Assembly: GCA_037379345.1 (NCBI GenBank)
Contig: CM074521.1
Coordinates: 20,546,704 to 20,610,703 of the forward strand
Direction of reading: 5' to 3'
Length of the DNA stretch: 64,000 bases
DNA from: Perna viridis
Lineage: Eukaryota
In this document: positions 26,809-46,850 of the stretch, one piece after another
Layout: the number at the start of each line of letters is the position of its first letter
How positions within the stretch are numbered: position 1 is the first letter of the stretch
Notes under the pieces: generated by a model
What the model saw: only the letters and a program-made list of their open reading frames with translations
The model's database searches: none
What the model was told of the DNA's origin: nothing
Translations under genes and position numbers: made by a program

Positions 26809-28748
26809 ATGATAATTCTCTTCATTGTTTGGGATTCTGCAAATTCCTAAGCTGTAGTTTCTAGTAAGTAAACTATTTGCACTACTTTGTCTGTAAACTT
26901 AATGTAGATTTGGAAAGTGCCGAAAAGATAGCAACCACATCTCAACAGTTTCTTTTGAATTTTTGTTTATGCAATTATTAGTTAAATATGCCCAGATTCA
27001 AACTGAAGTATTTCTGACATGTTTTTAAGCTAACTAAACAAATGTAACTGATAAAAAAGGATACGAAAGTACTATTAATGTTTATTTAAAAAAAATAGTA
27101 ATAACATAATCATAAAAATGTCCGAGCAATAAAACTAAAAATAGACTGATCATGTAAATTTGTAACAAACTTTTCGAAAAAAAAAAATATTTGTTCATAT
27201 TCTTTTTTCTTAACATAAGCAGTGACTCATTCATTTCACAATTCAAGATACAAATGAAAAAAAATATCTCTTTTGGTTGTTTACAAGAAGTCACAATTTA
27301 TGTTTAAACATTTATTGAAGATGATATTAGTTCTATAGAATCATTTTTGGTCGTTCAAATTGTATGAGTAAAATAAACTTTGCAAATTTTTTAATTTAAT
27401 TTTCAGACGTTTGTGTAGATGCGTTAAGAAATGGTGAAATACGAAATAAAACCATTGAAAGTAACGACGAGTCTGGAATAAAGTATAAAGTGTATTGTCA
27501 ATTTGGAGGATGTGGAGGATATATATATTTATTTCTAACCGAATTTTATCGCTACCCTCAGAAGATAACAGTGATCTTATTCCAAATAAATCAACGTTTA
27601 TTTCATTCCGATTGCTGCTCTCAAATGGTAGCCAAGCAGAATCACTCATTAAACAACTTCCAGAAATTGATGAAATATCTTTTGGTATATTTCAATCAAG
27701 ATATCCACAATACACAAGCCCAATAAAATGTACATCTCGGCTCAATAAGAGACGTTCAAAGAATTTGTGTATTGGGTTCCTATCAACAAACGAAAAACTT
27801 GGGCATATAACAAGATACTCTGCTAATAGAAATCTGACGCTACAAACACCAGTTGCACTTGAACGAACTCTCCATGTTACTTTACCCTCTATTTCAGTTC
27901 GTTTTGCTTGCATGGCGTCAACATGAAACATGTTCGGAGAAATACGACGGTTAGCGGGTGGCTTGAGAGCGCAAGACTGATGAATACTTACACAATGCCG
28001 AAGGAATTCTTTTTTAAGTCACACGTTGTTAACTGGCATAGGCCTGCTGATTTTGTACCCTATAACAGTTTTGACGACACAGTACTTGCAATAGGACTAC
28101 CATTCGGTAAGACAGTAACTAACTACCTCATTATAGTTCGAAAATCTCGTCAATTTCTGCCAATTTGTTTATTATTTGTGTCGATCAAAGTGTTGTGTCT
28201 ATTAAAGTAATCTTTAATCTTTATAAACGGCATTAAGATTGTTGCTTATTGTGTATAATTTATCATAATCTCATAATCTTAGGTTCAGCTGAAAAACCAC
28301 TCACACAATCTTCAACAAAAATTATAGATTTGCCATCAAAACCAGAGCAGCAGCTTTATAACTCTATAGATGTGCCAAACGATGTCAGAGTTAATGTCGA
28401 CTAAACAATCAATATCCTCAGACTATAATCACAGTAGATATATGATGGAGTAAACATTGTTGAACCACCAGTTAGAATTTTCAACTCCCCTTGTTTAAAC
28501 ATCGACTAATAATTGTGTGTGTCCTTGTCCAAATATGTGGAAATACCTTAGCCAGGAGAAACCTCACATGGGAACAAATTTTGAAAGCCCTTAAGGACGA
28601 TCTAAAAGAGCTCAAAATGCCAATACAAGTTCCAAAGAAAAATACATCGGCATTTATACGAAGTAAAACTTGTGACTCATTGGACAAACGTGTCTCGTAT
28701 AAGACCATGGGCGCACTTTCTATTGTAATTATTTTGTTCCTCTTTTGA
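26809..28748 (+). pseudogene. C1: unprocessed pseudogene of the C2/C3 membrane-protein family (exons 26809-26863, 27407-28106, 28283-~28748)
   Basis: Same three-exon, phase-1 layout (TCTA|gtaagt; tttcag|AC GTT TGT GTA GAT GCG; CCATTCG|gtaag). Homologous peptides VYCQFG, LSNGSQ, IGFLS, LAIGLPF, KKNTSAFIRSKTCD. Disabled by an in-frame TAA at 26848-26850, frameshifts near 27520, 27850 and 28545, and a stop in exon 3. Confidence 0.88.
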
Positions 28749-31700
28749 TGTTTCTGCTCAATTATATTGTCAGTGTTTGTAAAGTTGTAGGGAGCAACAA
28801 CAATAAGTAATAATATAAGCACACTAACACATCGTCTTTAAGTTCACTCTGCTGGAGTGTTTACGTGTTGTTTAACATTGTTGTAGACATTTGTTTTTAC
28901 TATATATACTGATTAATACTATACATGAAACTGAACGTTATATAATGGTACTACGCCTCGTAAGACCTTTTATCAGCCACGGTTACTTGTATTTTCATCA
29001 TTTGATAATATTGTTCGATACACGAATTAAACGGTTAAATCTGGTATTGGCACACTTTTGTACTTTTAATGTATGGGCAATTTTGGTCATATTTAGGCTG
29101 ATATTCGTACGTAGTCAATAAACATCATATCATATATATTTGTGGTTTCTTGCTGCAGGTATAAGTACATATTTTATAATGGACAACGTTTTTAGTACAA
29201 TAATCAATACGAACTGAATATATGACAATAGTAGCTCTGATGGTCTGCCTTCATTCTGACAGGCTATTTCATTCAGCTGAACTATAAGGGCTGTCTACCA
29301 TTATTACGTGTATTTTGGTTTAAGGTTTCAGAATATATCTGCAAAAAAATATCATATCGTACACGCAACAAAAAGCAACCAGCGATACATAGAAAATTAG
29401 ACAATTTGAGAAAACAAATGAAAATAACTATTCTGTACAATATAATTTCACATTTCATGAACCCCATAAGTCCTTTCTATCAATTTCAAATTCAAAGAAA
29501 TTAGTATTGGCATGACTTATTGAAAAACGTTTAATATTTACGTGCTTTTCTTTATACACTGTAACAAAAGTAAACATCCCCTTTCTAAATGGCAATATAC
29601 AAAAATCTCTAATATAAGCAGTATATATTTCACAGTTGAACTGGTACTGTTGAATCTGTACAACGGACTATATAAACTTCTCAATCGGGAGTATATTCAG
29701 CCTTCGTTAATTTCATCACCAGAGAGGTTTTGTCGTCAATATCAAAATATGATCAACCGATATCAAGTTTTATTCTACCAGATGAAGCAAGATATCTCCA
29801 ATAAGACTCGAGGTCTAGCCCGATTAATCACCCGCCGAACATGACACCTTAACAAAAAGTATCTCCTTTGAATCAAGTCAAAGTGGGTTGATCATAGGAT
29901 TCACTAGGGTTCTCTGTCACAATTATTAGTCAAACGGCAATCCTAATAGTGCTTTGCAATTACCAATTTTTTATTAAATTTCACCACCCAAGTCTTGAGA
30001 GATAAGATTTATTTTTTAATCAACGAAAGAGGGTATCTTCGATATTGATTTTGTTCTAATATTAGCACTCTTCAATATGTTAATGACTTTGCTCTTGTAA
30101 CAATGCCATGGCTTTGCATTTTCAAAACGCTTTTATTTTGAGTTTAATCTATACTTAATAAAATGAAATATGTCCTGTATTCGAAGTACACAAATATCCA
30201 TATGCAGGTCCGGCTAATACTTATGTTAGTAATTCCGATTAAACTCACCTTATATATTATTTGGAAACGTCGTGCTTTCGTGTTAGTGCGTTCAGAGAGC
30301 TATACATTTTATTTCTTTTGAAATCTTCAATTGAATTGTTTGCCCTACTTAATTTTCTTCGTACTTTTTATGGTAAAATTAAATATTTAACTTTCGTTTC
30401 CGGTTTGAAGTAGGAGAAAAGCTTTTGGCTTCGAGTATGAACACTTTGTAAAACAATCCATGGAAATTCACTGACGTCACTACTTAGACTAGCGAATATG
30501 CAAAAATTAAAACAAAATATAATCAAAACAAAACAAAAAATCTAACATATTCGACTTTGTCCTCTCATTAATATATAAAGTAGTATTAACCAGCGCGTTC
30601 GAAGGAAATTTGAATAGAAAAACACAATTTTTTTTCCAGAACAATCGTTATGACGATTATGTCAGTATACTTTATGATGAATAAAGCGTAATGATGACAC
30701 TAACTACGTGCACCTATTGTCTCATTGCTAAAATACATTGTACATGAATGCTTGTAAGTAAAACCGTTTATGGTTTAAATAACAATAAACTAGAAATTCT
30801 TCAACATGAGCAAGAATCCATGTTGGATTTTTATACCGGGCGTTTCCATATCTAAGTCATGATAGGTGGGCTTTGAAAACATATGTGCATATCCAACTTA
30901 TGAATTTCATAAAAGCTGTCATCTTCGAGAGAATGAAGCATTTAAATATTGTTTGTCACTCAGTCTTTTCATGCTTAGTAATCAATTATTGATCTTAGTA
31001 AAATAAAACAAATAAAGTCATAATGAGTCATATTATGAGGGACAGGTCGACTTGAAAAACCATTCATTTTCAGTTTCCTAATAAAGGTTATATATTATCG
31101 CTGAATCATCCAATTATTTATGAAAGTAACAAATTATCAACTAAATTGAACATGAACTGTAAAACTGATACATCCTTGTCTGCGTATCATCTTATTCCTT
31201 AACATAACTCGGAAACATGATGGTAGGAATATTAAAAGATATATTGGCCAATATGTTTTATTTGAGGATGGCCTGAAAATTCAAACATGTGAATAACAAC
31301 AAAGCTATGTTTATGTTTCATTTTAGTTGACGAGTCACACATGTACAACTCTTCTGAAAAAAAAATGACTCAAGAATATTTTGGCGAAGGATCGGTACGT
31401 AAATCTATGGTATTAATATACCATAAAATCATGCAAAGCGAATCTTAGAATTCAGGGTCTTAATATTTCAAAGGTTGACTCAATTGAAAACTATAACTTT
31501 ATACGTATTCAACTATGAAAAAGTGTTGAGAAGAGACGCCATAGCTGTTTGCAAGTATGACACTTTAGCAGACATATGAGAAGCAATACGGCAAAATGTG
31601 TTAATAGTTCCCCATAATGCCTCATTGCTTTGCACAGCGTCAACTTTACAAAATTTAACCTATGTCTCTTCGATAACATCATGTTGACCTTTGACCGATA

Positions 31701-45504: not shown

Positions 45505-46191
45505 GTAAGATCTGCTTGCATTAATATTGAATCCCCGAACTAAAATGGTAATGAGGACGTTAAAAAATGAAATAAAACATTTCTAACAGATTTGCACTGA
45601 AATGCGAGGGATAATACAAATCCAGTTTTTTTTATTAATTAAGGTAGACTAAATAAAGTTATCATATACATACTTTATTTTTTAGTTAGGCTATGTACTT
45701 AATGTATAGAGTAATTTTCGAGATACTTATCTTTTTCTGCTTCTAGACGGCAGAAAAAACTTAATGTTCATCAGTTACAACATCACAATAAGAAAAATTT
45801 TGACTACTTGTTCATGCATGCGTTTGAAGTTGTTTTCATAAATTCCGTTCTACAGTTGCGACAACTTCGCTCTCAGTATAAATGTATATTTATTTATTAA
45901 CATTAACGAACAAATTCTGATTGTTTTTATGATTTCACATTTTTTTTATAGTGATTATGTGGAGTTGGAAATTGAAATAGTGTTCGGTTATTATAATTAA
46001 GTTCACCAATCTAATTATGTAACGTGTAATACATCAGGTGGTAAGGTGTCGTTTTGTTAGCTTCACATGCTTACACGAGCTAACACATCGTGAGAATCAT
46101 ATTGTAACACTTTTCTTAGACAAGATTCGTTATCATTAGTCTGGGCTAAACATAAAATAGCTTTCAATATTCGTTTTGTTTTGATATTTAG

Positions 46192-46850
46192 GGTTTTCGC
46201 CTCCAAAACACTCCACAGCAAATACAGAACACTTTACTTTGTATAGAACGACAGAAAAGGAAGTTACAGATGAACTAACATCTGAGCCTTTTTCTACAGA
46301 CGTACCTCATCCTCGCTCCACAGAGATTATTCAACCTCATACTACAGAGTGTACTCATCCTAAGACCACAGAGGTAACGCCACATCAAGAATCAACTGTC
46401 AAAAAACCTTCCGTTCTAACACAACCGTCGACTCGTAAAATAGTGTCGACTAAAAGTGGACAGTATATACAAACAACGATGTCACAATATCCGACAGGAT
46501 TTTCACCAACACTTATCGGATCAACAACAGCTAATGAATGCACGTGTGTGTGTTCAAATAGACACAAATACTTTTATTTAGCTGGAAGAAATCTCACTCG
46601 GGAAGAAATAAAAAGAGCTCTTCAGAGCGAACTAATCAAACTTAAAACGTCAATAGAGGTTCAAAAGAAAAATACGTCGGCATACATACGAAGCAAGACT
46701 TGTGACACATCGGACAAACGTGTCTCATCCAAGGCTATAGGATCACTTTCTATAGTCACCATAGTAGTTCCCTTAGTGTTGTTTCTTCTCAATGATGTTG
46801 TAAGTGTTTGTCAAAGTGTGAAGAAAAGGGGAGTAATTCGTAATGACTAA
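46192..46850 (+). CDS. Gene C3 exon 3: stalk, CxCxC, juxtamembrane motif, TM helix (full protein 470 aa)
   Basis: Acceptor ttttgatatttAG ends at 46191, phase 1. Frame is open (FSPPKHSTANTEHFTLYRTT...) to the stop at 46850. Confidence 0.9.

Follow-up and report, generated by a model that had tools for sequence, protein, structure and literature searches.

Within a 64,000-nucleotide stretch of the Perna viridis genome (the window: GenBank assembly GCA_037379345.1, contig CM074521.1, positions 20,546,704 to 20,610,703 of the forward strand), AT-rich animal DNA with spliceosomal introns, three related genes, copies A, B and C, stand in tandem on the plus strand. We find that B and C are intact and encode proteins that carry a 231-amino-acid head on a mucin-like stalk, followed by a predicted membrane anchor and a short tail. 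By its sequence relationships the head belongs to an unnamed, ancient family that ranges from cnidarians to bivalves in soluble and membrane forms, and structural models suggest that it likely branches off separately within the fibrinogen superfamily, joining the common N-terminal lobe to a body of its own, as intelectin does. B and C are degenerate members, having lost most of the residues that mark this family. We give roughly even credence to the reading that they are stalked surface binding proteins whose specificity is altered or lost and which serve capture or adhesion, or else work via a partner able to recognise their anchor.

The coding sequence of B comprises exons at 35877-35934, 36737-37432 and 38261-38901 (positions are those of the window) and that of C exons at 43926-43983, 44809-45504 and 46192-46850, giving products of 464 and 470 amino acids. 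All four introns are GT..AG introns of phase 1, and the domain exon, phase 1-1 and 696 nt long in both genes, encodes the head, which is 74% identical in amino acid sequence between C and B. Each protein opens with a short hydrophobic stretch encoded by exon 1, by eye a putative signal peptide, and continues through the head, a stalk of ~110 residues and one hydrophobic segment to a basic tail of ~20 residues. A preliminary description of this DNA, made from the letters alone, had assigned signal, domain and stalk-plus-transmembrane exons to all three paralogues; that layout holds for B and C, with domain exons of phase 1-1, and fails for A, which is broken.

Evidence of splicing came from contigs of three public runs (RNA by a tool's guess) aligned to the region. 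A contig of run X10 covers exon 1 of B (35784..35934), adding at least 93 nt of 5' untranslated region ahead of the 19 codons and one nucleotide of coding sequence that start at 35877, and crosses the junction 35934>36737 (GT..AG, 51 letters on the short side). In run X1, a contig crosses the junction 45503>46191 of C, where moving the cut one base to the right gives GT..AG. Two of the four predicted junctions are thus seen, each in one contig of depth 2-3; those between exons 2 and 3 of B and exons 1 and 2 of C appear in no contig of the three runs. Further contigs span most of the last exon of C (those of run X1) and parts of the last exon of B. Computed region by region between B and C, the ratio of nonsynonymous to synonymous substitution (dN/dS) is 0.28 in the head (bootstrap range 0.17-0.40; 0.38 in its C-terminal part); the anchor has a value of 0.22 and the stalk one of 1.14, and the introns are scarcely alignable. 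Head and anchor of B and C are under purifying selection. Together, low dN/dS and observed splicing indicate that both genes are kept by selection, with expression that is low or tissue-restricted. A non-coding block of ~370 nt, 69% identical between 31613-31977 and 42305-42662, lies upstream of both genes and is possibly a shared regulatory element or untranslated exon.

As sole query, the B head matched no Pfam family at E≤10 and found no longer homologue among 861 candidates; the domain has neither a Pfam nor an NCBIfam match, and is in this sense unassigned, as first described. A single PDB sequence match was dismissed as chance. Relatives were reached only via the paralogue L012 and a 13-row profile. 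Searches of the organism's own genome (723 Mb, 46 contigs) with the head returned 24 and 15 matches, which resolve into 13 intact loci—B, C and 11 others on five contigs—plus several broken ones around C11:20.12-20.15 Mb. At ten of the 11 other loci the head occupies a single exon with the same phase 1-1 borders, and at L013 it has one internal intron. With the 13-row profile, 328 cluster representatives matched at E≤0.001, 86 of them at ≤1e-30, some of the weak matches reaching the N-terminal part only. On the family profile, which contains both, B scores iE 1e-54 and C 4e-52; independently of it, L012 retrieves B at E 4.5e-12. Named members belong to the genera Pinctada, Ruditapes, Mercenaria, Saccostrea, Ostrea and Mytilus, and of 30 looked up among 149 new representatives, a species was recorded for nine: Mytilus (3), Mactra, Patella, Lingula (2), Stylophora and Rhopilema. 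The range thus takes in bivalves, a limpet, the brachiopod Lingula, a coral and a jellyfish. Named members are annotated as uncharacterised or after a partner domain, and the nearest Atlas clusters, found with the homologue P0002 as query, are unnamed, with Mollusca, Cnidaria or Chordata commonest. No description of the head domain or of the anchor was found in the literature searched, which was mostly open-access.

The company that the head keeps is varied. It occurs in tandem pairs, beside EGF, Sushi, PAN, TSP1 or FAMeT domains, after long N-terminal extensions, and on transmembrane proteins whose tails hold three to five YxxL/I/V/M motifs (P0015, P0018 from Mytilus trossulus, and P0019), which are candidate signalling counterparts of the tail-less B and C. 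From these partner domains, the head likely behaves as a mobile binding module. At L075 (C12:12.826-12.836 Mb) a head has an EGF exon behind it and then at least eight exons of TSP1 type, whereas for L015, L017, L018 and L019 neither a head nor an anchor exon was identified as a follow-on. P0139, an unnamed protein of 4035 aa, was rejected as a family member: its 15 matches are to the N-terminal part of the profile only, and it appears to be a large repeat protein with a true YCD..GGGW lobe. At C11:20.11-20.20 Mb, on the minus strand, three or four broken head exons of B/C type lie inside a tandem array of WSC and PAN-like genes; their DNA is up to 86-92% identical to B and C, the similarity stops at the splice sites where these are whole, and no anchor exon was found within 116 kb of those at C11:20.12-20.15 Mb. 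They are possibly exon shuffling caught in decay.

In both B and C the head opens with CLD...FKVYCEF..GGYT, a start that had been likened to those of fibrinogen-related domains (FReDs) and of fibrillar collagen C-propeptides (COLFI), with a departure thereafter, and profile comparisons agree on both counts. An hhalign comparison of the family with seven FReDs of the same genome gave 93.7% probability (E 1.8e-7) over 47 columns only, and the first ~47 residues of the B domain exon correspond to this fibrinogen-type N-terminal lobe. The family profile matches intelectins, fibrinogens, angiopoietins and COLFI over positions ~8-57, best of all XEEL (E 8.7e-7, profile positions 8-51). Among the 107 aligned family rows, 48 match NCBIfam NF040941 at E≤0.01, a YCDxxxxGGGW short-lobe model that covers the lobe and not the whole domain; 13 match PF00147 at the same threshold, B being in neither set; and four match PF01410, over the lobe only (first ~40 residues) where the alignment is shown. 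The C-terminal half found no PDB chain at E≤10 with a 28-row profile and no Pfam match, and its hhalign probability against the FReD profile was 0.1. A regular-expression search found neither EFWLG nor GGWW in B, in C or in any of the 107 rows, and an FSTxD-like match in one row; the lack of EFWLG and GGWW, the LAIGLPF ending and the juxtamembrane segment CxCxC...KKNTSAYIRSKT..D.R.SS..IG are as the preliminary description gave them for B and C. The head family matches no viral model at E≤0.001.

AlphaFold2 models of the whole head, built with the 107-row alignment, are confident for B (pLDDT 88, pTM 0.88) and for L012 (95.5, 0.92). With both, Foldseek returned nothing at E≤0.001 and a best TM-score of 0.29-0.34, and among 48,161 PDB representatives no chain reached Z 5, which, the models being of whole heads, is no proof of a new fold. 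FReDs rank first in the fold searches (TM-score 0.29-0.33, Z≤4.5, root-mean-square deviation (rmsd) ≥4.1); in VIA-align, ANGPTL3/4, the procollagen C-propeptide, XEEL, ficolin and a lamprey lectin tie at Z 4.1-4.5 and rmsd 3.8-5.3, and every top match is a fibrinogen-superfamily binding domain. The structural alignments run from first to last residue, with 100-151 residues aligned, and there may be loose sharing beyond the lobe. It is because confident models match FReD, intelectin and COLFI folds equally weakly (TM-score ≤0.34, Z≤4.5) that we favour a separate branch.

What sets B and C apart within the family is the loss of its hallmarks. Two motifs, F.NCD.N.NSY and E.H.GGCGG, are nearly fixed across the heads, and of 15 hallmark residues scored, 12-15 are kept in 83 of the 107 rows; B keeps two, C three and L006 two, as does P0023, a near-identical database copy of L006. 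The places that the motifs should occupy in B, according to the family alignment, are 37174..37206 and 37351..37377, and since the flanking anchor columns of the alignment still align, the loss is replacement and not misalignment. The cysteines of the two motifs, conserved at 86% and 88%, are gone in B and C; B has cysteines nearby at residues 155 and 208, possibly a moved disulfide. In a quick tree of the 97 of 107 rows of at least 190 aa, B, C and L006 come out together as a clade on long branches, with an SH-aLRT support of 99. The composition of the hallmark motifs, rich in Asn, Asp, Glu and His, suggests a putative Ca2+ or glycan site; a proposed likeness of E.H.GGCGG to the intelectin ligand loop was set aside, having no alignment support. 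With these residues lost, a lectin site is not to be assumed for B and C.

The stalk of B (38261..38586, ~45% Ser, Thr and Pro; 43-45% across B and C), whose dN/dS against C is ~1.1, leads into the anchor module (38587..38901), which consists of a CxCxC motif, an N-x-T sequon, an amphipathic helix, D-x-R-x-S, the hydrophobic segment (~38785-38841), an invariant Asp, a short basic tail and the stop codon. The hydrophobic segment gives a single Kyte-Doolittle peak of 2.6 at residues 427-445, followed by KKKR, and the tail of ~20 residues is basic and has no Tyr motifs in either protein. These features predict type I membrane glycoproteins; anchoring by glycosylphosphatidylinositol was rejected, given the charged 20-residue tail behind the hydrophobic segment.

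The anchor is shared far beyond the head family. The last 104 residues of B have at least 93 matches in the genome (150 of 177 candidates scored), and in 28 aligned copies D60, R62, G69 and the Asp that closes the transmembrane segment, D87, are invariant, with CxCxC, the N-x-T sequon (25 of 27) and a helix with hydrophobic residues spaced by 3-4 conserved. No Pfam family matches more than two of the 28 rows. In the Atlas, the anchor falls in three unnamed, mostly mollusc clusters (scores 0.90-0.95), and its alignment finds at least three database proteins, among them an Ostrea Sushi protein. A prediction of a three-copy complex, in which the alignment was not used, scored 0.02. We scanned the neighbourhoods of 19 loci out of the 93, for the most part those with the highest scores outside the head family, taking seven sense-strand open reading frames (ORFs) per 10-kb upstream stretch (20 stretches). 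Eleven of the 19 loci have an extracellular Pfam domain upstream on the anchor's strand (FAMeT 3, Ig 3, kringle 2, kringle+Ig 1, SUEL 1, C-type lectin+PAN 1), and at nine of the 11 it passes curated cut-offs, as against none of 140 ORFs selected in the same way on the opposite strand. Of nine such exons looked at, seven have a candidate phase-1 donor at their end, and on C14 a WSC match was found 1.6 kb upstream of an anchor. The anchor also lies downstream of the head at five of the 11 other head loci, and L016, a hallmark-intact paralogue as is L012, has it too. Its presence beside so many ectodomains supports exon shuffling, and both this origin and a juxtamembrane segment common to other mollusc ectodomain proteins had been anticipated in the preliminary description. 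On the minus strand of L124, ORFs of 1122 aa (2244-5609) and 541 aa (86-1708), upstream of and including the anchor module, have no Pfam match.

In the reading that we favour, the fibrinogen-superfamily head of B and C would be held away from the cell on its mucin-like stalk. Since the hallmark residues have given way to others within a fold that is predicted to persist, its ligand would differ from the one usual in the family. That the head is a binding module at all would follow from the tandem heads, the partner domains and the transmembrane relatives with Tyr-motif tails; in hallmark-intact members the two motifs, probably joined by a disulfide, could form a putative Ca2+ or glycan site as in intelectins and ficolins. 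As the short tail would be unable to signal alone, B and C would serve as capture or adhesion molecules or, alternatively, depend on a partner that recognises the anchor by its invariant D-x-R, Gly and Asp. The genes may have arisen when a phase 1-1 domain exon joined a ready-made stalk-anchor exon, and then undergone birth and death. The earlier proposal of an undescribed lectin-like or recognition receptor family is accordingly recast: the family is unnamed and starts like fibrinogen, as proposed, but is ancient and wide; lectin-like activity is a conjecture from sequence for the family and a weaker one still for its degenerate members B and C; and a receptor whose ~20-residue tail has no signalling motif would need a partner.

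Several observations weigh against binding proteins of changed specificity. Loss of the hallmarks fits, as far as sequence goes, a non-binding role equally well, and dN/dS between B and C lends no support to positive selection. Expression is low: word depth is 2-8 in the three contig sets, and two raw RNA runs, of which 19% and 24% were read, give no depth on B or C exons. The links between anchor and ectodomain at other loci are by adjacency, not transcripts. The matches in fold, weak as they are at Z 3.5-4.5 and rmsd 3.7-5.6, would be largely due to the shared lobe, whereas ficolins and intelectins have their ligand sites in the C-terminal part, for which there is no sequence match here.

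The strongest competitor, which we hold to be rather unlikely though well ahead of those that follow, is that B and C carry non-binding head remnants, each a folded cap to a membrane mucin that would serve structure or as a barrier (in a mucus coat, or on a shell- or byssus-forming epithelium) or as a decoy. It would account for the loss of 13 of 15 hallmark residues in B and 12 of 15 in C, for five N-glycosylation sequons in the B head, the mucin-like stalk and a tail with no motif, and it suits neighbours that are large low-complexity ORFs with no Pfam matches; the neighbourhood by itself, however, is no proof of common function. An idle cap sits less easily with purifying selection along the whole head, its C-terminal part (0.38) included, and loci of the same layout with largely intact motifs lie far from the cluster. 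A second possibility, to which we attach little weight, is that the head is simply a very divergent ordinary FReD whose low fold scores reflect prediction error: the models are of the whole head, and the structural alignments, with FReDs first, cover the whole domain (100-151 residues). Yet two models with pTM 0.88 and 0.92 reach at most TM-score 0.34 to every solved FReD, profile-profile similarity ends after 47 columns with a probability of 0.1 for the C-terminal half, the FReD motifs are absent, and COLFI and intelectin score about equally. Least probable of all, we think, is an enzyme with an active site built from invariant Glu, His, Asp, Asn, Arg and Gln, which would make B and C membrane-bound pseudo-enzymes. 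Many polar residues are indeed conserved from cnidarians to molluscs and no lectin structure closely matches the body, but tandem heads, C-terminal heads after long helical-looking segments and heads on Tyr-tailed transmembrane proteins are typical of binding modules, and in no fold search does an enzyme fold rank above the fibrinogen superfamily.

In the way they would work, B and C resemble stalked recognition proteins of FReD or intelectin type, but by sequence they belong to neither family. With the FReDs of PF00147 (ficolins, tachylectin 5A, angiopoietin-like proteins, FIBCD1, bivalve FReDs) the head has in common the N-terminal lobe C..D...G.Y....VYC....GG.T and its placement after N-terminal extensions or on membranes, and ANGPTL3 is the top fold match (Z 4.5, rmsd 4.2, 135 residues); it differs in its cysteine set, in its own hallmark motifs and in matching no FReD profile over its full length. 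Intelectin itself joins a fibrinogen N-lobe (FBD, residues 37-82) to a different lectin body (PMC9682848). Like the intelectins or X-type lectins (human intelectin-1, XEEL, lamprey LSSL; PDB 4wmq, 4wmo, 7e1e), the head pairs a short lobe with a family-specific body. Its structural alignments to them reach Z 3.6-4.3 and rmsd 4.7-5.3 over 139-151 residues (TM-score ≤0.34); it has no sequence match to them past the lobe, and in B and C it is part of a stalked protein that is predicted to cross the membrane once. COLFI/NC1 domains (the fibrillar collagen C-propeptide, PF01410) share the lobe and align at Z 3.5-4.4 and rmsd 3.7-3.9 over ~100 residues; unlike COLFI proteins, B and C have no collagen helix. 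The placozoan 'intelectins' (Kamm et al. 2019, PMC6321704) are ~250 aa long, form tandem clusters and are fibrinogen-like in their N-terminal part only; they have W-T-L after the lobe, ten conserved cysteines and are secreted, whereas the head family has G-Y-T-F and four cysteine columns above 85%, and it is by these features alone that the two are set apart. Closest is an uncharacterised Mytilus edulis protein, XP_071157815.1 (P0066), with the same head, Thr/Ser stalk and CxCxC-helix-DxR-transmembrane-Asp anchor as B and C, in which, unlike them, the hallmark motifs are largely intact.

A bolder synthesis, which we put forward as speculative and on balance improbable, is that the fibrinogen superfamily has, in addition to FReD, COLFI and intelectin, a fourth, ancient branch, which the head defines and whose ligand-binding body is new, and that the anchor is a mollusc-wide docking module through which ~90 tail-less surface proteins (Ig, kringle, FAMeT, lectin and these heads) share one signalling or sorting partner, B and C being re-specified or decoys. 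Were this so, it would amount to an unrecognised combinatorial receptor system. Invertebrate lectin surveys rely on Pfam models, for example PF00147 in PMC8878817. As 13 of 107 members match that model, the family is largely invisible in immune-gene inventories despite its coral-to-bivalve range. The head is tractable, being a single exon of ~230 aa with a confident model and with hallmark-intact and hallmark-lost pairs in one genome, and the shared anchor offers a handle on ~90 uncharacterised mollusc surface proteins.

Copy A spans 26809 to ~28810 and is, on its sequence, a pseudogene. The remnant of its signal exon (26809..26863) meets an in-frame stop after 13 codons; its domain exon (27408..28106, 699 nt, splice sites checked) is frameshifted, with tblastn matches in three successive frames; and the remnant of its stalk/anchor exon (28283..28810, 3' end approximate) holds stops and a frame change.

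Around the three genes lie large low-complexity ORFs rich in Ser/Thr/Asn, Gln/Pro or Lys, at 6546-9533, 11126-12334, 16160-19747 and 63508-64000 on the plus strand and 22335-23657 on the minus strand; the one at 63508-64000 runs on past the window as a Gln/Tyr-rich ORF (L136:1-1557), and a 635-aa ORF immediately before the window (L135) is of the same kind. The four that were scanned have no Pfam match. With several signal-peptide-like starts among them, on both sides of the genes, they are likely, from their sequence, a cluster of secreted matrix or mucus proteins, which is the setting that the preliminary description gave. Between the paralogues, high-copy repeats at 32100-35400 and 40800-41200 are heavily covered by RNA reads and contigs. 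A tandem array of 60-nt period at 55698-56302 has 85-93% identity between copies and open frames on both strands, and, elsewhere in the genome, C5:46.70-46.85 Mb holds dozens of near-identical WSC exon pairs that repeat every ~2.8 kb.

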